Origin: a virus
Taxonomy: Duplodnaviria; Caudoviricetes
DNA: 33,338 nucleotides
Virus record (IMG/VR): IMGVR_UViG_3300037422_000264
Span: 1-33,338 of that record
Reading direction: 5' to 3' (one strand)
Every line of letters begins with the position of its first letter. The first letter of the stretch is position 1. This document shows, one piece after another, positions 133 through 32,487 of the stretch. A program made the position numbers and the translations under genes. The notes beneath the pieces are model-generated. The model was not told where the DNA came from, ran no database searches, and worked only from the letters and a program-made list of their open reading frames with translations.

Positions 133-711
133 CTATTGGCAGAACTTGACGCGCTCGCCTGCCGTGTGCGGGCGTTTGAAAATAACCTTCCGGCTCACCA
201 TCACGTTGCGGGCATACCACATGGCCCGGTAGCCCGCGCCGTTGTATCTGCGCACGCCGCCCCATAGGTTGCCCCGTGCGACCCGCAGCTTGGTGTAGAA
301 CTCGGCAGCGGCGAAGGCGGCTTGCGTGTCCAGGCTGTCGATGCCGCCGAGTCGGTAGCCACGCGCTTTCCAAAAGGCGCGCCAGTTCGGCTCGTTCTCC
401 CGCAACATTTGAAAGGCCCCGTAACTCCGTCCGTCATCCCCGATCAGCGTGGGATCGAAGCCGCTCTCCCGATGACCCATGCTCAGGAAGGTGTCGAGCT
501 GATCTTCGAGGCAGAGCCGCGCAAGCCACTTGTGCGACTCCCGCGCCACTTCCCTCAGCCACTCGGGCTGCGCCGCATTGGGGTAGTGCTTTGTGTAGAA
601 GGCGACGAGGGCTCGCTCCTCCCTCGTCGGGCCTGCATGGCAGAGCCCGGCGAGAAGGAGCAGGGCGGCTAATTTATTTGCAGTTGCCCTTGCCTGCTTC
701 AAGCGCTTCAA
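133..711 (-). CDS. Lytic transglycosylase (SLT/lysozyme-like) with signal-peptide-like N-terminus; start uncertain (TTG 711 or 702)
   Basis: HRESGFDP catalytic Glu motif, SYGAFQM, VRRYNG; basic N-region followed by LAALLLLAGLCHA. Confidence 0.7.
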   Translation of the reverse strand: MKRLKQARATANKLAALLLLAGLCHAGPTREERALVAFYTKHYPNAAQPEWLREVARESHKWLARLCLEDQLDTFLSMGHRESGFDPTLIGDDGRSYGAFQMLRENEPNWRAFWKARGYRLGGIDSLDTQAAFAAAEFYTKLRVARGNLWGGVRRYNGAGYRAMWYARNVMVSRKVIFKRPHTAGERVKFCQ

Positions 712-16827: not shown

Positions 16828-18645
16828 TTATTCAAGGCCCGCTTCGGCCTTCATGGCTTTGATCGACTCGGACAGCTTGGCGCTCTTGGAGGAGCCGCCG
16901 CCCTTGGCGCCTGCCGGGATCACCACGCGCCCACCGGCGGCTTCGATCATGGCCTGCGTCTTCTCGATCTCGCGCTTCATCTCGCTCTCGGTCATGCCGA
17001 GCAGGTCACCGACTTGCAGCAGCTTGACCGGCACTCCGGCCTCGCTGAGCAGGCGCGTGGCCAACTCTTTGTCTTCCGCGAGCTGCAACTTGGCCTTGGC
17101 CTCGCGCAGTTCGGTCTTGACCGCCTTGATGTCATCGCTTTTCTCGGCTTCGCTCTCCCGCACCCGGGAGGCCACGGCTTCAAAAAGTTTCGGATGCTTG
17201 ATGCGCAGCTCGTCAGCGGTCATGCTCTCGACCGCAGGCGCAGCCGCTTCTTTTCCCTTGGAGGCCGACTTGACCTTGGCGAGGCGAGCTTTGTAGGCCT
17301 CGTCGGTCTCGTCTTTTTCCTTGGGGATGAGCTTCATGAAGCCGGCCTCGTCCATGTCTTCGTCCTTGGCCTCTTTCTTCTCGCCCTCTTTGGCGGCTTC
17401 TTTGAGCTGTTTGTTGAGGTCTTCGATCTTGGCCGTGGCCGCAGCCTTGGCCTCGTCGGTCTTGGCCTCGCTGAGTTTCTTGGTTGCCTCGGTGATCTCG
17501 GCCGTCAGGGCCATGAGTTTCTTGAGCATGAGCGCTTCCTCCTTGGGGAATTTGTGCGCCGTGGCGGCGCTTTCGACTAGGGCCAGGAAGGCGCCGCCCC
17601 TTGCGGGGCGGGTCACCACGTCTACACTGTCGGCCTGGCCTACGCCGACGATGCGATTCCACTTCTGTCCCTTGTACTCGGCTTGGCCTTCTCGCACGCC
17701 GCTGCCGCAGATACTCAGCCCCGCGTACTCCTCTGGGCTGTCCGGGAAAATTTTCGAGTACTCGAGCTGGGCCTCGATCTTGGCCAGCGCCTCGTTGCCT
17801 GCCGCGCTTTCGTCGAGCACCAGCGTGCCCTCGACCGCTTTGACCGGGTCACCAGTCTTGCGGTCTCGCACCGTCACCACGTGGGTGTCGCGGTAGAAGC
17901 CGCACATCTGCCGGACGTCGCCCTCGGGCCTGTTCTTATACTCGGCCTCGCTGGCGTGGTTGACGAAGGCCCGGGCCCCGTTGTACTTCTTGGCCGCGTC
18001 TTCGATGAACTCTGCCGCGTAGTAGTTCTTGTCGCGGAGATTGCCGGGGCCCTCGGTGATCAGAATGCAGCGCACTTGGCGCTTTGGGCCGTCCAGTACC
18101 GCCGCTTCCCGGAGGCTGGTGAAGGAAGGATGGCGGTCGCGCCAGTCGCTTTCTTTCGCCTCTTGCCCGTATATTTCGAGTTCTCCGTAACTATCCAGGC
18201 TTGCCACAAAGGTGTCTTTTTTTCGCCAGACCGTTCCACCCTTATCTGTGGGCGAAGAACTATCAAAATCAACGCCCTGCCTTTTTAAAACATCTTCAGC
18301 GTGTGTCAGTGAACCCACGTTGAAAGTTTGGGCGCGTATTTTGCCTCCGCTTTTTTTATCGCCTTTGCTTCCTCCGGCGCCTGACCATTTTCCGGTTTCG
18401 TCGCGGTCTTGATCCGGGTTGTAGGCTTCCTTGGCTCCGGCCCGCTGCAGGGCGCCCATCACCGAGGCGCTCGCCGCCTCGTCGGCCTTCAACTCTGCCG
18501 GGGCGCCCTCACCTGCTTGGCCGCCCATCTGCTTGTAGACGTGGGCCACTACCGCCCAGGGGTCGCCGTAGCTGTCCCAATCGGGCTCGACCGCTTTTTT
18601 GGCCTTGTCCCACAGGCCCTCGTCTTTGACCCAGCTTGCGGGCAT
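16828..18645 (-). CDS. Prohead protease-scaffold fusion with N-terminal accessory domains
   Basis: AFVNH, GLSI, SVDVVTRPARGG protease motifs; C-terminal Lys/Glu/Ala coiled coil. Confidence 0.82.
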   Translation of the reverse strand: MPASWVKDEGLWDKAKKAVEPDWDSYGDPWAVVAHVYKQMGGQAGEGAPAELKADEAASASVMGALQRAGAKEAYNPDQDRDETGKWSGAGGSKGDKKSGGKIRAQTFNVGSLTHAEDVLKRQGVDFDSSSPTDKGGTVWRKKDTFVASLDSYGELEIYGQEAKESDWRDRHPSFTSLREAAVLDGPKRQVRCILITEGPGNLRDKNYYAAEFIEDAAKKYNGARAFVNHASEAEYKNRPEGDVRQMCGFYRDTHVVTVRDRKTGDPVKAVEGTLVLDESAAGNEALAKIEAQLEYSKIFPDSPEEYAGLSICGSGVREGQAEYKGQKWNRIVGVGQADSVDVVTRPARGGAFLALVESAATAHKFPKEEALMLKKLMALTAEITEATKKLSEAKTDEAKAAATAKIEDLNKQLKEAAKEGEKKEAKDEDMDEAGFMKLIPKEKDETDEAYKARLAKVKSASKGKEAAAPAVESMTADELRIKHPKLFEAVASRVRESEAEKSDDIKAVKTELREAKAKLQLAEDKELATRLLSEAGVPVKLLQVGDLLGMTESEMKREIEKTQAMIEAAGGRVVIPAGAKGGGSSKSAKLSESIKAMKAEAGLE

Positions 18646-18792: not shown

Positions 18793-19080
18793 CTACCTTG
18801 GGTTGTGGGTGGGCTCTTGAATGCGGGTTTCGATAGGAGTTTCAACGCTTTCCAGCGTTTTTTGCGGCTCAGAAATTCTTATCGTTTTTTTCTCTAGCGC
18901 GACCTCGGCGTCAATGCCTTTCCAGATTTGCGCGTGCCCTCTCGCTCGGTCTGAGGCTTCCACGTCGACCTCCACTTTGACGGCCCTGATCTCCCCAGCG
19001 TATTTCACCGCCACGATCTTGCCGGTGGGAACCGAGCGCAGTTCGTTGATGAGCCTGGCCTCCCGCTGCGTCAGCTTCAC
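18793..19080 (-). CDS. Hypothetical protein (95 aa)
   Basis: GTGA coupled start; (M)KLTQREARLINELRSVPTGKIVAVKYAG. Confidence 0.6.
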   Translation of the reverse strand: MKLTQREARLINELRSVPTGKIVAVKYAGEIRAVKVEVDVEASDRARGHAQIWKGIDAEVALEKKTIRISEPQKTLESVETPIETRIQEPTHNPR

Positions 19081-19811
19081 AGGCCGGCCCCCGCGTGCTT
19101 CAGCGAAAACTTCCGGTTCACGATCTTGAAAGCCCAATGGTGGCTGTTGGTGACGGGGCTGTGAAAATAGTGCAGGCCGGTGAAGCTGATGTCCCGTGCG
19201 TCGATGCGCCGGTTGTTCAGGATGTTGACGAGGTGCTCGCCCAGCGTCATCGTGACTTCGAACACCGCAGGGTAGTCGTCGTGCAGCTTGGGCAGGCGCG
19301 CATACCCGCGCTTGAGGTACTCGGGCGCGGCCTCGGTGGTGATGGCGTAGGGATCGTAGGTGAGCTCTGCCGAAATCTCGCCCGATGGCGTCCAGAAAAT
19401 ATTGCCCGCCTTCAGCGCCCTGGGCCGGTATTCTTTTTCCCGGCACAGGTTGCCCACGGCGTTGGCCAGCTTGAAGGCGAAGTCTATAAGCTGGGGCAGC
19501 TTGTGCTCGATCCGCGTCAGGGCGCCGTAGTGCCGTTCGATGTCGTTCAGGTGATCGTCTTCGCCCTTGAGGCTGTCCTCGACCTGGCGGCTCAGCGCCT
19601 TGGCCTTGGCCGCCGCGCTGCTCAGCTCGGCGTCGGGGCCCGGCGCCACGCCCTCCTCCTCGGCCTTGATGTTCTTGGCGACCTCGTCCAGTTCGGACCG
19701 GTGCTCGGCTCGGTGGGCTTCCCAGAGCTGGTCGAATTCGGCCTCGTTGTGTGCCGTCAGGTTGACGTTGCAGACTGGGCAGGTGTGTGCTCGGCTGGGG
19801 ATCTCGCTCAT
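19077..19811 (-). CDS. Hypothetical protein with N-terminal CxxC...H Zn-finger-like motif
   Basis: ATGA coupled start, AAGGAG RBS; HTCPVC...WEAH. Confidence 0.7.
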   Translation of the reverse strand: MSEIPSRAHTCPVCNVNLTAHNEAEFDQLWEAHRAEHRSELDEVAKNIKAEEEGVAPGPDAELSSAAAKAKALSRQVEDSLKGEDDHLNDIERHYGALTRIEHKLPQLIDFAFKLANAVGNLCREKEYRPRALKAGNIFWTPSGEISAELTYDPYAITTEAAPEYLKRGYARLPKLHDDYPAVFEVTMTLGEHLVNILNNRRIDARDISFTGLHYFHSPVTNSHHWAFKIVNRKFSLKHAGAGL

Positions 19812-20032
19812 GCTGGCTCCTTTGATGGGAAGAAGCGCTTCTTGAGCCGGGCCAGAAGGCCGGGCTTGTCCGGGGTGATGTCGCCTTGGCCGTACTCGAG
19901 GCGCCCGTAGTATTCGGTCAAGTGCTGCAGCAGCTCGACGCCGTCCTGGTGCTGCAGCGTCAGCGTGGTACGGTGGCCGTCGTCGACGGCGATCACCACC
20001 GCCCGGCTTTCGTCCATGTCGACTGTGATCAT
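19808..20032 (-). CDS. Hypothetical protein (74 aa)
   Basis: GGAGG RBS directly after the MuF stop. Confidence 0.65.
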   Translation of the reverse strand: MITVDMDESRAVVIAVDDGHRTTLTLQHQDGVELLQHLTEYYGRLEYGQGDITPDKPGLLARLKKRFFPSKEPA

Positions 20033-21892
20033 TTAAACCTCCACTCCCAGCTCGCCGGCCCGGCGCTCGAGCCACGCATCGAACTTTTCAACGGGCGCGA
20101 TCTCCCACTTGCCCTCGGGGTTGCGGATCCCGCGGGCGTCGTCGCTCAACTCCTCGGGCATGTCGAGGCCGATCAGGTTGCTCCAGCTTTTCAGCTTGGG
20201 CGCCTTTGTGCATCTGCAATTATGGACAATAACCCCGTTACAGATGTATATTGGCAGGAAACCACTCTGGAGGTCGTACACATGCCCGCTAAAATAACTG
20301 GTCTTGATCTCGACAATCTTAGGCGCCTGTACGAATCGGGCGTATCTGAGAAACAGCTCGCTGCTCGACATGGTGTGTCGCGCAATGTTGTCAGAAGCCG
20401 ATTGCTCTCCCTCGGCGTCTCTCCCCGTAATCGCTCTGCCGCAATGTTCACACGCATGGCCCGCACCAGCTCCAGGGAGCGCCAGCGCCTCACTTCCGCT
20501 GCCCATGCTGCCGTGCGAGGAAGTCGCAGAAGCCAAGAAAATCTTGAGGCTGCGGCCAAGGGACGCGAAAAGGTCGGAAAGGTCTTTTCTTATGCTGAGA
20601 ACTTGATGCGTGAGCTGCTCAAAAAACGCGGGCTTGAATGCGTGCCGCAGAAGGCCGTTGGCCCCTACAATCTCGATCTGGCCGTCGAAGCCTGCCGCGT
20701 CGCCGTGGAAATCTTCGGGGGCGGTTTTCACGCCTCTGGACGCCATGCCCACCGCCATTTTGAGCGCACTAAATACTTGCTCGATCTTGGCTGGGCTGTC
20801 GTTGTGGTCTGGGTTGATGGCCTTCATCATCCCCTTGGGGTCGGTGCTGCTGATTACGTGGCCGCCTTGGCGCAAGAGCTTCGCTCTAAGCCATCCCGTC
20901 GGCGTCAGTACCGGGTGATTCTCGGTAACGGCGAACTCGCTTCCGTCCGAAAGACGCACCTCAATGATCCTGCCGCGATAGCTCGCCTTGGTGGCGGCTT
21001 GGACTTGGGGCGCTAAAACAAACTGCCCCGCAGGCACACAATTCGGGTGCAGCGGCGCCTCGGTGTCGTTGCCCCAGGGGTCCTCGCCGGGGTCTTCCTT
21101 CTCGATCTCTTTGTCGGTCTTGCCCTCGCGCCGCAGGCACCAGGGGCAGAGCCGGTCGTCGGGCGTCACCAGCCACTCGGTCTCGTCTTCGTCGAGGAGG
21201 TCTTTGTTCTGCTCGTAGGTGAATCCGCGGGCGAGGTTCTGGGCGCGCATGATCTCGCTGCGGGCGATGACCGCGGCCCGATTGGCGTAGCCGCGGGGGT
21301 TCTTGAGGTTCTCCAGCCCCATGACCTTGGTCAGCCGCTCGGCCGCTTGCTGGATGCCCTCGCCTTGGATCAGGCTCTGGGTGAGCTGGTCGCGGATGTC
21401 TGCTGCCATCGCGTTGGTGATGATGCCGATGCGCTGGCTGAACATCGCGCCCCGGTATGGCGTGTTGACGAGGATCCGCACCGCGTCCTCGGGTGGCCGG
21501 GCAAACTTGATTGGCGTGCCGGGGGGTGTGGCCTGGTCGAGCGCCCACGCCGTCTTGTCGTAGGCGTGCCTGAACTGCAGCATGGCGCCCGCGCCGATCT
21601 CTTCCTCGAGCGCCACCTGCAGGCGGCTCAAAGTCTGCTCAACGGAGCCGAGCAGCGCCTGCAGCCGGCCGCTGTCCAGAAATTGGTTGTAGCTCCAGCC
21701 CGTGGTGCCGCCCAGCCCTGTGGTGAGCCGGGCGATCAGCTCGTCTTGGGCCACGCGGTAGGCCTTGAGCAGCCGGATGACGCTTTCGTTCTCCTCGCCC
21801 CGCAGCGTCTTCATGGCGCGGGCGTAGAGCATGTCGATCACTTGCCGCTGGGTGAGGAAGCCGCCCGCCTGGGCTGTCTTGATTCCGGGCAC
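20033..21892 (-). CDS. MuF/SPP1 gp7-like minor head protein, intein-containing precursor
   Basis: RAAVIARSE, DDRLCPWC, PLHPN|CRC motif interrupted by an intein; follows the portal. Confidence 0.92.
   Translation of the reverse strand: MPGIKTAQAGGFLTQRQVIDMLYARAMKTLRGEENESVIRLLKAYRVAQDELIARLTTGLGGTTGWSYNQFLDSGRLQALLGSVEQTLSRLQVALEEEIGAGAMLQFRHAYDKTAWALDQATPPGTPIKFARPPEDAVRILVNTPYRGAMFSQRIGIITNAMAADIRDQLTQSLIQGEGIQQAAERLTKVMGLENLKNPRGYANRAAVIARSEIMRAQNLARGFTYEQNKDLLDEDETEWLVTPDDRLCPWCLRREGKTDKEIEKEDPGEDPWGNDTEAPLHPNCVPAGQFVLAPQVQAATKASYRGRIIEVRLSDGSEFAVTENHPVLTPTGWLRAKLLRQGGHVISSTDPKGMMKAINPDHNDSPAKIEQVFSALKMAVGMASRGVKTAPEDFHGDAAGFDGQIEIVGANGLLRHAFKPAFFEQLTHQVLSIRKDLSDLFASLGRSLKIFLASATSSHGSMGSGSEALALPGAGAGHACEHCGRAITGRDAEGEQSASDNIARHTMSSSELFLRYARFVQAPKIVEIKTSYFSGHVYDLQSGFLPIYICNGVIVHNCRCTKAPKLKSWSNLIGLDMPEELSDDARGIRNPEGKWEIAPVEKFDAWLERRAGELGVEV
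20223..20274 (+). promoter_or_regulatory. Candidate promoter and Shine-Dalgarno for the antisense endonuclease
   Basis: TGGACA (20223-28), N18, TATATT (20247-52); GGAGGT (20269-74) 7 nt before ATG 20282. Confidence 0.5.
20282..21016 (+). CDS. HTH + Vsr/DUF559-like endonuclease encoded antisense inside the intein (244 aa)
   Basis: LYESGVSEKQLAARHGVSRNVVRSRL (HTH); SYAENLMRELL...PQKAVGPYNLDLA...VAVEIFGGGFH...ERTKYLLDLGWAVVVVW; strong RBS. Confidence 0.8.
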   Translation: MPAKITGLDLDNLRRLYESGVSEKQLAARHGVSRNVVRSRLLSLGVSPRNRSAAMFTRMARTSSRERQRLTSAAHAAVRGSRRSQENLEAAAKGREKVGKVFSYAENLMRELLKKRGLECVPQKAVGPYNLDLAVEACRVAVEIFGGGFHASGRHAHRHFERTKYLLDLGWAVVVVWVDGLHHPLGVGAADYVAALAQELRSKPSRRRQYRVILGNGELASVRKTHLNDPAAIARLGGGLDLGR

Positions 21893-21895
21893 GGT

Positions 21896-23827
21896 TTACT
21901 TCCGGCCTTTGCGCCGGGCTTCCACCGCAGACTTTGGGGTGGGCTTCGACTTCTTGCCCGGATCCGTGGGCTCGTTTTCCTCTGGCTCCTCGTCGTCACC
22001 GGCGCCCGCGTTCCACTCCTCGTTGCCGCCGCCCATGTCGGACTCGGCTTGGATGGCCTCGGCTTCCTCCTGCGGGTCGTAGCTCGTGACGCCAATCTCC
22101 TTGGCGTACATGGTCGCGGCGCGCTCGTGGCTCAGGTACTTCTGCGCCTCGCCCAGCACAATGGCCTCGAGCTTGGCCTTGCGGTCTTCGCCCGCGGGCT
22201 CAGGGAAGATGATTTCGAAGCTCTTGTCGATGGGCTCATCGACTTCCTTGCTCAAAAGCAGAGCTGTCGCTTCCTTGATGACGGACTTCCAGTTGCGCTG
22301 CACCAGCGCCAGCTTCAGCTTGCTCAGCGACGCGGGCCGCACCTGCGTCTCAGGCAGCGTGCTGTCGCTGTCGAGCACAAACTCGCCGATGCGCCGGATG
22401 TACCGCTCGATCACCATCTGCTTGTCTTCGATGTTGCGGCTGGCCGGCCCTTCCTTGGTGCGGGCGGTCTCGGCTGTGCTCCCCGCCGCGCTCTCGCCCA
22501 GCCACTCGGGCGCGATCCCGGCGCCCACGGCGATCACGTTCTTGATCTGCTCGCCCACGTTGTCGCGGCCCTGGGTACTGCTCGAGGTGGGGTTCAAGTA
22601 GCTGAACTCGACGTCCTTGTTGTGGATGCGCGTGCTGCCCGCCGGCGGGATGCGCTGCACATCGGGGTTGGAGGCGTAGGCGTCGACGTCAGCTTGGTCG
22701 CCGTCGATGGCGATGTCGAGGCCCCAGCTTTCCTCCATCTGGGCCTTCACCACCTTGGCGTTGAAATAATCGCGGAAGCGCTTGAGCCAGCTCAGCACCG
22801 CGAACAGGTCGGAGCGCCCTCGCTTCTCACCGGGGGCGTTGTTAATCTTGATGTGAATCACCTTGTCGCCAGGGATGTCGTTGATGATGTACTCAGTGTT
22901 CTTGTCCGTGGGCTTGTAGGTGAGCTGCCACTGGGTGGGGTATTGCTGGTGGAAGTAGAGCGCGACCTCGGGGGTGAGCGGGTCGGTGACGATCTCCCAG
23001 ACCGTGCTGGGGTCGATCTGCTTGAGGATGGGCAGGCCCTCGGTGTCGAAGGCCTTCTCGGTCATGATCTCGCCCGCCCAGACCAGCGTCTCCACGTCGG
23101 TGCGCAGCTTGGCCTGAAAGTCGGTGCGCTTCTCGAAGTCGTCCCAGCACTTCTGCGCTGCGGGGCTGGCAAACAAAACCTTGACGCCCTTGCCCACCAC
23201 GTAGCTGCGCAGGATGTTGACGATGGCTTTGCCGAAGGGGTGGTGGTTCTTGCTCCAGAACGCCTTGGCGTGCATGTCGAGGTAGTCGTAAATATAGAGC
23301 TGCTTGGAAAAGGGGCCTCCCAGCAGCGGGGTGTACTCGTCGTTGGGGGGCCCCACGATGCTGCCCGTGGTGAGGTCGTCGCCGCCGTAGTTGAAGGCGT
23401 CTAGCCCCAGCGTCTCGAGCAGCTTGGCCGCCGCCCAGTCCTTGCGCTGGGTCAGCTTCCTGAACGCCTCGGTGCTGTCGACGCGCACGAGGTCGACCTT
23501 GTACAGGACGCCCTGCTTGAGCGCGTGGTGCCTCGACTCGCTCAGCTTGGCGAATCCGAGGCGCCAGCCCTTGCCGGTGTGCTGCGCCTCGATCATGCGC
23601 CCGTCTTTGTAGGCGGTCACCACGGCGATGCGCCCGCGCACTTCGACCTTGCCCGCGGCGAGGCCCTTGCTCTCAACGGCCATGCGCTTGTAGTGCTCAT
23701 GGGCGCTGATCGTGGTTTCGCTCAGGTTGCTTTCGGGGTTGTACTCGTCGGCCTTCTTGACGTGGATCCGTGCGCGACCGCCCCGGCGCTCTCGGTCAGC
23801 CGGGTGTCTGAGTTTGTTCTTTGCCAT
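21896..23827 (-). CDS. Portal protein with N-terminal extension
   Basis: ATG 23827 with AGGAG; VIHIKINNAPGEKRGRSDL, IAVGAGIAPEWLG; acidic tail; follows TerL. Confidence 0.88.
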   Translation of the reverse strand: MAKNKLRHPADRERRGGRARIHVKKADEYNPESNLSETTISAHEHYKRMAVESKGLAAGKVEVRGRIAVVTAYKDGRMIEAQHTGKGWRLGFAKLSESRHHALKQGVLYKVDLVRVDSTEAFRKLTQRKDWAAAKLLETLGLDAFNYGGDDLTTGSIVGPPNDEYTPLLGGPFSKQLYIYDYLDMHAKAFWSKNHHPFGKAIVNILRSYVVGKGVKVLFASPAAQKCWDDFEKRTDFQAKLRTDVETLVWAGEIMTEKAFDTEGLPILKQIDPSTVWEIVTDPLTPEVALYFHQQYPTQWQLTYKPTDKNTEYIINDIPGDKVIHIKINNAPGEKRGRSDLFAVLSWLKRFRDYFNAKVVKAQMEESWGLDIAIDGDQADVDAYASNPDVQRIPPAGSTRIHNKDVEFSYLNPTSSSTQGRDNVGEQIKNVIAVGAGIAPEWLGESAAGSTAETARTKEGPASRNIEDKQMVIERYIRRIGEFVLDSDSTLPETQVRPASLSKLKLALVQRNWKSVIKEATALLLSKEVDEPIDKSFEIIFPEPAGEDRKAKLEAIVLGEAQKYLSHERAATMYAKEIGVTSYDPQEEAEAIQAESDMGGGNEEWNAGAGDDEEPEENEPTDPGKKSKPTPKSAVEARRKGRK

Positions 23828-24080: not shown

Positions 24081-25859
24081 TCAATCCTCAAAAAAGGCGC
24101 GGCGCTTGACCTTGTGTTTCAGTAGCCGCTGGGCTGCCGCCTTCCAGGTGCTACGATACCACGAACAGAACTGTGTGAACATATCCACCTGATCCGAAAA
24201 TTTGCCCGTGGGGAAGGCTGCGGTCTCGGTCAGGAAGTCCTCGAGGTAGGGGGCGCCCTGCAGCAGGAGCACCTGCTTGGGGTGGCGCTCCCCTGGCACC
24301 GGTGCCTCGATCATGCCGGCCACGGCGTTGGCCCGGGCTACCTTGTCGCCTGCGGGCTCCACCGGCACCAGCGTGTTCTTGGGCAGCGACTCGGCCAGCT
24401 CGGGGATGAGGTCTTTGCCGCTGGCCTTGTCTTCGATCAGGAAGCGGTAGGCCCCGGTGCGATTGTGGGCCGTGCGCGCCCGGGTCTTGAGCTGCGGGAA
24501 GGCCCACCAACCCTTGTCCACGTCGATCAGCACAGCCTTGTCGCCGCCCGTGAGGATAGCAAAGGTGCCGATGACGCTCCGGGCGTTGCTCTCCTTGGTG
24601 CTGAAGGCTGTATCCGCGCTCAGCACCTTGCAGAGCGTGCCTTCCTTGACTTGCTGCTCGGTGGCGTAGTGCCAGGCGTCCCGGCGCAGGATGGCGCCCT
24701 CGCCGGCCGAGGGGCGCTGCTGGTAGAGCGCGTTCCACCAGCGGATGCCGCTTTTGCGGAGCCGGGCCTTGATCTTGCCCAGCCGCTCGTCGTTGAACTT
24801 GTCCGGCCAAAGGGCGGCGCCGTGGGGCCTGTGGTCTCGAATGTAATTGGGCGCGCCCGCGGGGGGCTCGGCCATGTCTTCCCGGATGGCCTCGAACTTG
24901 ATCACCACCCAGCCCTCGGTGGGCTCCCCGGCCTCGACTGCTTCCTTTTCGGCCTGGAGGATGCGCCCGATGAGGTCGTCTTCGTGCCAGCGGGTGGCGC
25001 AGATCACGATAGCCGCGTCGCCCTCGTCGCGGCTCAGGAAGGTGCTGAGGTACCAGTCCCAGATGTTGTCGCGGATGGTCTCGCTGTCGGCCTCTTTCGG
25101 ATCTTTGATGGGGTCGTCGATGATCCCCAGCGTCATACCCGTGCCGGTCAGCGTGCCGCCGATCCCCGTGGCCATGTAGTAGCCCGTGCGGTTCACGATT
25201 TCGAAGTACTCTGTTTTGCGCACCCAGCGCGCCCCGGCGAGGCTCTGCTTGGTCTCGCTGGGCAGCATGGTCTCCGGGTGCAGCGCCTTGTACCCGGGGC
25301 TAGTCATGATGCGCTGCACCGCCCGGCTTTCCTTCTTGGCCAGCGTGCCGTTGTAGGTGGCGTGCACCACCTGGCCGTCGGGGTGGCGTCCGAGGTAGGC
25401 CGCGGGAAGGCGCCGGCTCACTCGCTCGCTTTTGCCGTGCCGGGGTGGCATCTCGATGATGACGCGCTTCAGGCGCCCGGCGACCACTTCCTCGAGCGCC
25501 TTGTCCATAATCGTGTGGTGCCAGTTTTGCTTGTTGCCCTTGAAGGTGTAGTGGATGAAGGCGCCGAAGTCGGCCCGGGCGGCCTTCCGGCGCAGGCCCT
25601 CAAACGCCGCCTCCCTCGCCGTGATTTCTGTCCTTGGGCGCCACCAGTCGCCGTCCCACAGACTTGGGGGTGGGCTTGGCTGGGTGGGATGGCTTGTGGG
25701 CTGCTGGGGTGGTCTTGGGGCTTCCCACGGGCTTTCCTTGGCCACCTGCGGGGCCTGGGGGCCCTTTCCGGGGGGCTGCAGGGGCTTTGCCAGCGGTGCG
25801 CTTGGGCTGGGGGGCCCGCCGGGGCTGGTCGGCTTCAATGACGCGGATGAGGTGCTCAT
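24081..25859 (-). CDS. terL: Terminase large subunit (start uncertain)
   Basis: Walker A MPPRHGKS, Walker B IIDDP, TRWHEDDL, LYQQRP, nuclease SADTA, IEDKASG, DQVD. Confidence 0.95.
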   Translation of the reverse strand: MSTSSASLKPTSPGGPPSPSAPLAKPLQPPGKGPQAPQVAKESPWEAPRPPQQPTSHPTQPSPPPSLWDGDWWRPRTEITAREAAFEGLRRKAARADFGAFIHYTFKGNKQNWHHTIMDKALEEVVAGRLKRVIIEMPPRHGKSERVSRRLPAAYLGRHPDGQVVHATYNGTLAKKESRAVQRIMTSPGYKALHPETMLPSETKQSLAGARWVRKTEYFEIVNRTGYYMATGIGGTLTGTGMTLGIIDDPIKDPKEADSETIRDNIWDWYLSTFLSRDEGDAAIVICATRWHEDDLIGRILQAEKEAVEAGEPTEGWVVIKFEAIREDMAEPPAGAPNYIRDHRPHGAALWPDKFNDERLGKIKARLRKSGIRWWNALYQQRPSAGEGAILRRDAWHYATEQQVKEGTLCKVLSADTAFSTKESNARSVIGTFAILTGGDKAVLIDVDKGWWAFPQLKTRARTAHNRTGAYRFLIEDKASGKDLIPELAESLPKNTLVPVEPAGDKVARANAVAGMIEAPVPGERHPKQVLLLQGAPYLEDFLTETAAFPTGKFSDQVDMFTQFCSWYRSTWKAAAQRLLKHKVKRRAFFED

Positions 25860-31289: not shown

Positions 31290-32487
31290 TCATGCGCGTT
31301 GTGCGCGGTTGAGTTCACTTACCATTTGAATCCGTTCACCTATCCAGCGCATCACCGGCACAGCCATTGAATTTCCCAGTGCCTTGTAGCGCGGCCCATC
31401 GGCTGCACCCGGGATCAACGTATAATCGTCAGGAAATCCCTGTAGGCGTTCGCACTCCCGCGGTGTCAGCCGGCGAACCTGTGCGCCAACCTGTGCGCCA
31501 ACCTGTGCGCCACGCCGTAGCGTCGGGGCCATCTGATTTTCATAGCCGATGCCTTGAGCCTTGGAGCCTTGTGAGGGCAGAAAGCCGGCGACACACTGCG
31601 GCGCCCCTCGGCTATCTTGGGTGTATGCTGAACCATCATCCAAGTATTCCTTCCCTTGTGGCCCTGCGTTTGGCCCTCGACCAATAACGTGCGGGTGAAT
31701 TGCTGTGACCAGCGGCACTCCCCTGCCTGTCCCATCCTCGCTGGCATCAAAGCCCCCTCCGCGCAAGGTGTGGGCTATCTCCCCCCCCCCCGTTCACTGG
31801 TATGTATGTATCATTGTCGTTGCCATACCTGCCGACACCGCCCTTGGCGGCTAGGGGCTTGGCGACTGATTCGCCACAGCTTCCAGCGCTTGCCGCAACT
31901 GTGGGGGCAATTTTTTCCCCCGTTTTTCTGCTCGGCGGAGAATCCCCGCGCAGGCTTTGGCGCTCAAATAATACCGCTGCGGCAGGTCGCCAGTCTCCAA
32001 GATATCCGACAACGAACACACGGCGGCGGCGCTGGGCCAGACCAAAGTATTCAGCGTCAAGAATTCTGTAGGCGAACCCATACCCGCACTGCGCCAGCCC
32101 TCCGAGGAAGGTTCCAAAATCCCGTCCTCCCCCACTTGACAAAACGCCAGGCACGTTCTCCCAGACAATCCAGGTGGGCTTGAAGCGGTCAGCAATTGCA
32201 AGATATGTAAGCATGAGGTTCCCGCGTGGGTCAGTAAGGCCTTTTCGAAGTCCTGCGATTGAGAAGGATTGGCAGGGGGTTCCTCCGACGAGAACATTGA
32301 TATTTGGCTCATTGGGCCACTCCTTAAATTTGGTCATGTCTCCGAGATTCGGAACGTCAGGGTAATGATGCTTGAGAACCTTGCACGGAAATTTTTCGAT
32401 CTCGCTGAACCATGCCGGCTTCCAGCCAAGGAGCTCCCAAGCACAGGTTGCGGCCTCTATGCCGCTGCATACCGAGCCATAAATCAC
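31290..32487 (-). CDS. C5-cytosine DNA methyltransferase, frameshifted at a G11 tract (N-part 31747-32487, C-part 31290 to about 31780)
   Basis: VCSGIE, GGTPCQSFS, WENVPG, QRRRRVF; C-part RRLTPRECERLQGFPD and YKALGNS in the +1 frame. Confidence 0.9.
31476..31511. repeat. 12-bp perfect tandem repeat x3 (AACCTGTGCGCC), encoding GAQV x3
   Basis: Read directly from the sequence. Confidence 0.95.
31781..31791. repeat. C11/G11 homopolymer at the methyltransferase frame junction
   Basis: Read directly from the sequence. Confidence 0.95.
31851..32312 (-). CDS. Nested +1-frame ORF, M.EcoHK31I beta-subunit-like
   Basis: AAGGAG RBS 7 nt before ATG; CSLSDILET...YYLSAKACAGILRRAEKRGKKLP. Confidence 0.7.
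   Translation of the reverse strand: MSQISMFSSEEPPANPSQSQDFEKALLTHAGTSCLHILQLLTASSPPGLSGRTCLAFCQVGEDGILEPSSEGWRSAGMGSPTEFLTLNTLVWPSAAAVCSLSDILETGDLPQRYYLSAKACAGILRRAEKRGKKLPPQLRQALEAVANQSPSP

Follow-up and report, generated by a model that had tools for sequence, protein, structure and literature searches.

Anti-sense VSR-like nucleases in full inteins of actinobacteriophages have been reported by Gosselin, Arsenault and Gogarten (bioRxiv 10.1101/2025.01.02.630785), in whose collection the minor-capsid inteins bore only non-canonical nucleases. Related systems are the EDxHD homing endonucleases, with I-Bth0305I as prototype (Taylor et al. 2011, PMC3239194), Vsr-like endonucleases encoded between the split-intein halves of fractured genes (Dassa et al. 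2009, PMC2677866), and a cyanobacterial dnaX intein with an out-of-frame LAGLIDADG nuclease (Phillips et al., bioRxiv 10.64898/2026.09.14.751524). Here we analyzed the virus record IMGVR_UViG_3300037422_000264 (Duplodnaviria; Caudoviricetes; the whole stretch of 33,338 nucleotides is called the window), in which the minus-strand gene for the head protein MuF is interrupted by an intein whose plus strand encodes a putative homing endonuclease (Table 1). We consider it highly probable that this is a homing intein split between the strands, with splicing encoded on the minus strand, and with a helix-turn-helix (HTH) plus Vsr-fold nuclease under its own promoter on the plus strand. The layout is already known in outline from the Gosselin preprint, so that a first-pass annotation of this DNA, which did not know the arrangement as described, was mistaken on that point; the additions made here are an overprinted promoter, ribosome-binding site (RBS) and start codon, and an overlap with splicing block B.

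Like the inteins of the preprint, the one in the window is contiguous and bears an antisense open reading frame (ORF) with a Vsr fold (Z to 1CW0 of 10.6 for theirs and 11.1 here), with an unstructured in-frame middle, a long helical N-terminal part, and minor capsid proteins (IPR006528) among the hosts; the Gordonia phages Vivi2, Fosterous, Affeca and Angelicage encode 43-45% identical proteins under their MuF genes. The two accounts differ in that promoters, RBS and start codons go unmentioned in the main text of the preprint, which does not settle if, or by what means, these nucleases come to be expressed; to that question the codon evidence below offers a concrete answer. Moreover, the preprint typically places its second ORFs beyond the splicing domain, but in the window block B falls within the ORF, and the signals of the ORF span blocks F-G; and the layout, called rare there, was found here in no fewer than 503 IMG/VR stretches, as well as in phages of Salmonella, Escherichia, Pseudomonas, Klebsiella and Vibrio.

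Similarly, I-Bth0305I as described combines an N-terminal DNA-binding part with a C-terminal Vsr-fold domain, and the antisense protein has counterparts of its first Glu (E106), of D196 (D132), of the acidic residue at Vsr Phe62 (E143) and of H213 (H150). In contrast, the equivalent of its D222 is absent, a single or double HTH replaces the NUMOD repeats (HTH families match the antisense protein, and no NUMOD family does at E up to 1), and the gene lies antisense in an intein rather than in a group I intron, with cleavage predicted. Because the last Asp is lacking, we do not class the protein as a strict EDxHD member. The loci of Dassa et al. also combine an intein with a separate Vsr-like nuclease gene that has expression signals of its own and partly overlaps the intein's coding sequence, but there the intein is split and the reported overlap is 6-69 bp, while here it is unbroken and 735 of its 822 bp are coded on both strands. 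The dnaX intein likewise has overlapping splicing and nuclease frames, frame-specific selection and a Shine-Dalgarno sequence inside the intein, although that nuclease is of the LAGLIDADG fold and occupies the +2 frame of the same strand in a chromosomal host gene, and no promoter is discussed in the part of that preprint covered here. An antisense promoter inside intein blocks appeared in no title or abstract of the literature searched, which covered few subscription journals and the main text of the Gosselin preprint.

The first-pass annotation had placed a contiguous intein with its splicing blocks in the HPN/CRC motif of MuF (the slash marks the insertion point), and both coordinates and residues hold. 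The splicing-block names used here follow established intein nomenclature. We identified Cys1, block B Thr39-Glu-Asn-His42, block F Asp256, the terminal His273-Asn274 and Cys+1; the Pfam family Intein_splicing matched at E 3.4e-10, and C1, T39, H42 and N274 were invariant in 56 aligned inteins. An AlphaFold model of the intein resembled the Mtu RecA intein 2imz (Z 11.8, root-mean-square deviation [rmsd] 1.6, 108 aligned; Hint fold), and Hint domains were the only structure matches with Z > 5. Thus, the intein belongs to class 1 in sequence and Hint fold, and is predicted to splice. Its middle had been given as about 165 amino acids (aa) with neither a LAGLIDADG nor an HNH motif; no such family was indeed found at E up to 1 in the Pfam scan, but the low-confidence part is smaller, about 100 aa (residues 131-232). 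A folded sense-strand nuclease was rejected, since the intein middle is of low confidence and Hint domains top the fold searches.

The antisense ORF stands in exact antiparallel codon register with the intein and wholly inside it, as had been claimed. Its ATG is the complement of the CAT of intein His253, directly before VYDL, and its TAA is the complement of the TTA of Leu9. The protein matched the Pfam families MTES_1575 (E 1.7e-8; 34.9 bits against a threshold of 38.2), GcrA (E 5e-5), DUF559 (PF04480; E 3.6e-4; 20.8 bits, marginally passing the gathering threshold of 20.6) and HTH_7 (E 0.011), and fell short of the cut-off of the Vsr mismatch-repair endonuclease family TIGR00632 (11.6 bits against 97.85). 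A profile built from seven sequences picked out 3hrl, Vsr and I-Bth0305I from the PDB, and an AlphaFold model from 56 sequences reached a mean pLDDT (the predicted score in the local distance difference test) of 90.8. When this model was compared with 48,161 chains by VIA-align, the top three matches corresponded to the three names given for comparison in the first-pass annotation: Vsr 1cw0 (Z 11.1, rmsd 2.4, 115 aligned), the DUF559 protein 3hrl (Z 10.2) and I-Bth0305I 3r3p (Z 9.6, rmsd 2.6, 95 aligned). By Foldseek alone, neither the antisense protein nor the intein had a match at E <= 0.001; the best row for the antisense protein was I-Bth0305I 3r3p at E 0.004. HTH domains aligned to residues 1-47, among them the GcrA DNA-binding domain (Z 6.3) and Tn3 resolvase (Z 5.9). 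E106, D132 and H150 are each conserved in 56/56 sequences and E143 in 55/56. Judged from this alignment, the EIFGG variant in the window is the norm of the family and not a sign of decay. We also observed longer antisense proteins, of about 280-350 aa, in 18/55 IMG/VR representatives and at the loci L004, L009, L103 and L105; those inspected have a second HTH, and the sense intein is longer by an equal number of codons.

We collected the family by a nuclease-motif search of IMG/VR, which matched 532 stretches; 503 were confirmed, and the best 80 were used for locus counts. The sense frame was open in the same register at 81/81 loci (the window and the best 80 of 503; 60 distinct) and at 46/47 GTDB loci, the exception being L153. 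Conversely, a sense-strand pattern search found 9 loci (6 distinct), and the antisense ORF was kept in 9/9; an alignment-based intein search used the pattern YFSGHVY and thus says nothing on the conservation of that motif, while the promoter tests below drew on loci found by the nuclease motif. After three GenBank loci were added, an intein at an H-x-x/C junction could be parsed in 59/63 distinct loci, the pattern having missed four. Variant junctions (GWN/C, MGR/C, NGR/C, HDH/C, YGN/C, VIN/C, HDN/C) were seen in L115, L127, L133, L138, L143, L151, L103 and L105, and the element has therefore spread to MuF-type subfamilies that differ in their target DNA. GenBank holds 128 phage records with the family, RefSeq duplicates included, of which 64 are named for Salmonella, 15 for Gordonia and 15 for Pseudomonas.

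A few loci stand apart. Premature stops in L117:1968-2420 and L028:2477-3004 likely mark decaying members, as does the absence of an ATG, GTG or TTG from the normal start position of L018, L036 and L050. L153:1227-2228 is a free-standing Vsr-like ORF outside any intein, with the family motif AIEVFGGxWH and repeated GxHHSxxxKxK(L/M) units, which we take to be NUMOD-like; a gene of this type is a candidate invader of the intein.

As the first-pass annotation had cautioned, an open antisense frame means little in this DNA: the antiparallel frame of the whole 619-codon MuF gene holds a single stop, TTA occurs once, and TTA, CTA and TCA together 12 times, among 4217 codons from eight of the phage's large genes, and because these codons are so rare, the openness of the frame in this window alone is no evidence. 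The same annotation had stressed that the stop lies opposite the rare TTA of Leu9. The rarity is borne out, but the position is not a family trait; a fixed stop at Leu9 was rejected, as stops scatter over intein residues -3 to 24 in 54/55 members, most commonly at 2 or 3. Across 57 representatives of less than 70% identity, the antisense frame was interrupted once in 13,873 codons, where extein codon use would predict 329 stops, a contrast that is inflated by the choice of loci for likeness to the antisense protein.

Selection could be assigned to the two strands by codon position. Across the alignments of 56 sequences, conservation at the third sense position, which is the first antisense position, exceeded that at the first over intein residues 66-235, and the order was reversed in blocks A-B and F-G (residues 1-65 and 254-274). 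The amino-acid identity of the spacer on the sense strand was about half that of its antisense reading. Among the Guernseyvirinae (11 alleles, with Snoke as reference), single-base changes in intein residues 131-235 were antisense-silent in 75 cases and sense-silent in 15, with 12 more that altered both strands, 5 that altered neither and 39 multi-base codons left unclassed; the corresponding counts for residues 1-65 were 11 and 21. Sense-strand motifs such as PEDFHGD and IEIV are motifs in appearance only, mirroring the antisense AVEIFGG and YNxD, and codons 122 (ATC or GTC) and 131 (TTG or CTG) always read backwards as Asp and Gln, respectively. In block B both strands set constraints: the Thr39 codon is ACC in 56/56, no other codon giving Thr in the sense and Gly in the antisense reading, and codon 37 has the form xCC in 56/56, giving three different sense residues and Gly in every case antisense. 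Thus, the I-x-G-N-G of the nuclease and block B share codons. The conservation survey across MuF inteins that the first-pass annotation had suggested thereby upheld the antisense ORF and its strand-specific selection, as well as the RBS considered next, and the three results it had named as counting against its proposal (no nuclease fold, scattered antisense stops, a folded sense middle) did not appear.

The predicted expression signals of the nuclease lie opposite the C-terminal splicing blocks. The -35 box is opposite His273-Val272-Ile271 and the -10 box opposite Tyr265-Ile264-Pro263; the predicted promoter is the only sigma70-like site in 19500-22200 and the only plus-strand site of at least 10/12 in the 33 kb window. 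It requires a rare ATA (5/200 Ile codons), and the start requires CAT (5/59 His codons). We compared the 57 divergent representatives with a null in which each protein was kept and synonymous codons were redrawn from its own exteins. Near-perfect promoters (TTGACA-17/18-TATAAT, at least 11/12) occurred in 25/57, compared to a null mean of 0.53 and a maximum of 3 in 1000. TATAAT itself was found in 34 members (3.0 expected), TTGACA in 16 (1.8 expected) and a Shine-Dalgarno match of 5 or more in 38 (5.4 expected). ATG at the His position before block F, where the first-pass annotation had seen the start, or two codons on, was present in 48/57 (26.0 expected, maximum 35 in 400).

Single codons are biased in the same way. 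The -10 Leu codon is TTA in 35/46, compared to about 10% in exteins, and the Leu codon of YDL is CTC in 46/48, compared to 240/1289 extein Leu codons. Because the third positions of Gly and Val near the -10 and YDL use all four bases, relatedness is not the cause of these codons. Furthermore, the -35 box arises from two residue solutions, Leu-Ser-Ser-Asn at 17 bp and Val-Lys-Asn at 18 bp, and a third solution, an extended -10, is built on Ile-Ile-Thr/Ala-His-Asn; members with Trp-Tyr for Leu-Tyr often put TATAAT on Ile-Ile, as TGnTATAAT. A 7-codon insertion shifts the protein end in L053, and TTGACA still stands 17 bp from TATAAT. The 43 GTDB members considered (47 minus L153, one duplicate and two unparsed) include 16 with TATAAT (2.6 expected) and 7 with exact TGnTATAAT (0.33 expected), and 8/11 Guernseyvirinae alleles read TGTGCTATAAT, of the extended -10 type. 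Thus, a promoter, a Shine-Dalgarno site and a start codon are predicted, on strong codon evidence, to be overprinted on blocks F-G. A T4-style hairpin hiding the RBS was rejected, since leaders folded like their shuffles (mean z 0.01; 3/57 below -2); a conserved terminator after the antisense stop was not found (4/55 below z -2), and terminator-like sites in the window were at chance level (4 compared to 3.0). Two folded, unrelated proteins and a promoter on 822 bp, with single codons fixed by both strands, make this an unusually clean natural case that should be useful for studies of overlapping genes.

Among the Guernseyvirinae, the distribution of the element is patchy in a way that resembles transfer. 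Only 70 of 497 records matching the Snoke gene cover at least 80% of it, and the remaining spread shows only the two exteins; the exteins of Snoke are 91-92% identical to those of the intein-less phage fFiEco03. The Snoke intein is 95-98% identical to the inteins of six Salmonella phages, while the N-exteins are 68-70% (five phages) or 89% (dunkel) and the C-exteins 80-82% identical, so that identity falls on both flanks of the intein; for NCTh5, the values are 97.7% for the intein and 68% and 82% for the exteins. The last 60 nt of the N-extein are 93% alike between Snoke and sidste, compared to 70% further out, as expected of co-conversion. Although dual coding slows change, the 95-98% identity points to horizontal transfer, because pairs with N-exteins 65-67% identical and an apparently older separation (AH01, STP-1) have inteins that are merely 78-81% alike.

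From these observations we propose the following course, each step of which is predicted or conjectural. The late precursor of 619 aa would splice by the class 1 route, restoring HPN-CRC in a MuF of 345 aa, and the unstructured middle of about 100 aa would leave with the intein; since it is removed, it may drift on the sense strand. Host sigma70-type RNA polymerase is predicted to start near 20259, yielding a leader of about 22 nt that bears GGAGGT, with translation beginning at the complement of His253. With promoter, RBS and start all on intein codons, the whole expression cassette would therefore travel inside the intein. The HTH would bind the intein-less junction, the nuclease would cut nearby during co-infection, and recombination repair would copy the 822 bp into the intein-less muF. 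We speculate that the promoter releases the nuclease from the late structural programme, and that this freedom might explain the preference of MuF inteins for out-of-frame nucleases, but T4 homing-nuclease promoters are reported to be middle or late and never early (PMC2988022), which weakens the rationale from timing. The -35 box lies four bases from the C-extein half-site, and the antisense protein could, speculatively, repress its own promoter, as has been described for I-TevI (PMC2988022). A fuller version, which we put forward tentatively and regard as somewhat doubtful, is a two-stranded mini-operon that is read by host sigma70 on entry as an early weapon against intein-less co- or superinfecting phages, with the HTH possibly self-repressing; its signals would have been carved from the codons of blocks F-G, by three or more independent residue solutions, and the last strand of the nuclease from block B.

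Several observations weigh against a homing nuclease with its own promoter. The family does not conserve the final Asp of EDxHD (column 159 is Phe in 32, His in 18 and Asp in 1 of 56, and His in the window), and the Vivi2 protein lacks the FGGxWH motif. All 11 Guernseyvirinae alleles have Ala for His150 (GGGWAC) and Gly for Gln123 (PGKAV), and these alleles (L104, L206-L211, L216-L219) are under selection, look mobile and carry the best transfer signature; the losses of His150 and Gln123 fit none of the explanations offered here. In the trio demigod, dunkel and sam, the inteins are identical and 98-99% of the C-extein is common to all three, which ordinary recombination can explain. We thus considered that the antisense gene might be expressed, yet encode a regulator, or a nuclease of another target such as competing phage or host DNA, with the intein spreading by ordinary recombination. 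The missing Asp, the selection on alleles without His150, the GcrA-like HTH match and the mosaic muF genes of the Guernseyvirinae speak for this, but E106, D132 and H150 are invariant across the 56 aligned sequences, the gene sits inside a MuF-type intein at all but one of the viral and GTDB loci counted above (the viral ones having been chosen, as the best 80 of 503, by likeness to the antisense protein), and both the drop in identity at the flanks of the Snoke intein and the co-conversion-like N-extein end shared with sidste favor homing. We therefore judge it unlikely.

The promoter itself is open to a different doubt, namely that the nuclease is real but has none, the signals being by-products of block F-G residues and ancestry, with upstream antisense transcripts or scant expression serving instead. 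The members are related, 21/57 viral and 30/43 GTDB members have neither a 10/12 promoter nor an extended -10, a promoter of at least 11/12 occurs in 1/43 GTDB members, and the one in the window scores 10/12 with an 18-bp spacer. In 34 other inteins we found no TATAAT and no promoter, a Shine-Dalgarno match in 4 (3.8 expected) and a start codon at those places in 1, but most of these controls are chromosomal inteins, whose residues leave almost no room for TATAAT (null 0.05); they therefore show differing residues and provide little power, and no test, at the codon level. Against this doubt, the null holds the amino acids fixed, TTA predominates at the -10 Leu beside mixed Gly and Val third positions, the boxes come from more than one residue solution, and their spacing outlasts the L053 insertion; we regard a promoterless nuclease as very improbable. 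The idea that the antisense frame is a mere shadow of GC-rich codon use, with no gene at all, could appeal to the same frame being open over the whole N-extein in the window, but it is rejected on the conservation results, with hardly any probability left to it: the nuclease fold, the invariant catalytic residues, the antisense-silent substitution pattern, the near absence of stops and a frame that is open also in AT-rich members are all at odds with it. Thus, a homing intein divided between the strands, with a separately expressed antisense nuclease as the first-pass annotation had proposed, remains the reading we prefer, as supported by the modeled fold, the strand-specific selection, the conserved start and RBS, and the transfer-like distribution. 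As a separate observation, near-perfect promoters in 25/57 viral but 1/43 cellular members may reflect counter-selection in prophages or the sampling of different subclades.

Table 1. Features of the MuF intein locus (positions in the window; dashes mark the minus strand)
Feature	Position	Strand	Description
MuF ORF	20033-21892	-	619 aa; Pfam Phage_Mu_F and Intein_splicing match
MuF N-extein, phage head morphogenesis / minor capsid	21041..21892	-	284 aa, ends APLHPN; Pfam Phage_Mu_F E 2.7e-10
Class 1 intein (splicing predicted)	20219..21040	-	274 aa, MuF residues 285-558, inserted in HPN/CRC
Sense-strand intein spacer, residues 131-232	20345..20650	-	pLDDT < 50, predicted unstructured
MuF C-extein	20033..20218	-	61 aa, begins Cys-Arg-Cys
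Predicted sigma70-type promoter TGGACA-18-TATATT	20223..20252	+	complement of intein block F-G codons
Predicted Shine-Dalgarno site GGAGGT	20269..20274	+	7 nt before ATG; complement of Asp256-Leu257-Gln258
Predicted start ATG	20282..20284	+	complement of CAT, intein His253
Antisense ORF, putative homing endonuclease	20282-21016	+	244 aa; HTH, helical basic linker and Vsr/DUF559-fold domain
Helix-turn-helix domain	20306..20416	+	about residues 9-45; Pfam GcrA, HTH_7
Vsr-fold nuclease domain (predicted)	20582..20968	+	residues 101-229; Glu106, Asp132, Glu143, His150
Doubly constrained stretch	20918..20932	both	block B Ala37-Val-Thr39-Glu-Asn41 (-) / nuclease I-x-G-N-G 213-217 (+)

The full-length nuclease gene is unannotated in 14/14 intein-bearing GenBank records examined, vB_StyS-sam having a 401-bp part annotated; among these records are phages of Salmonella and E. 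coli that belong to a group used for work on phage therapy, and the genuine MuF proteins in them would be about 270 aa shorter than annotated.

The virus record is linear and 90% complete, and its terminase (24081-25859), portal (21896-23824), MuF, head protease, major capsid and tail genes are all on the minus strand, with portal and terminase upstream of MuF; the N-extein matches the PHROG minor head protein. Neither an integrase nor another sign of lysogeny was found among 51 ORFs scanned against PHROGs. The other 10/12 sigma70-like site in the window, TTGACA-18-TAAAAG, runs from 18782 downwards on the minus strand, with the head protease gene (16828-18645) following after about 110 bp. The interval between muF and the head protease (19077-20032, minus) holds two ORFs of 74 aa and 244 aa without a PHROG match, the latter with an N-terminal CPVC...H...H motif. 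Finally, two minus-strand frames (31747-32487 and 31290-31766), both matching phrog_116, make up a split C5 DNA methyltransferase next to a run of 11 G at 31781-31791; the split may reflect phase variation or a sequencing slip.

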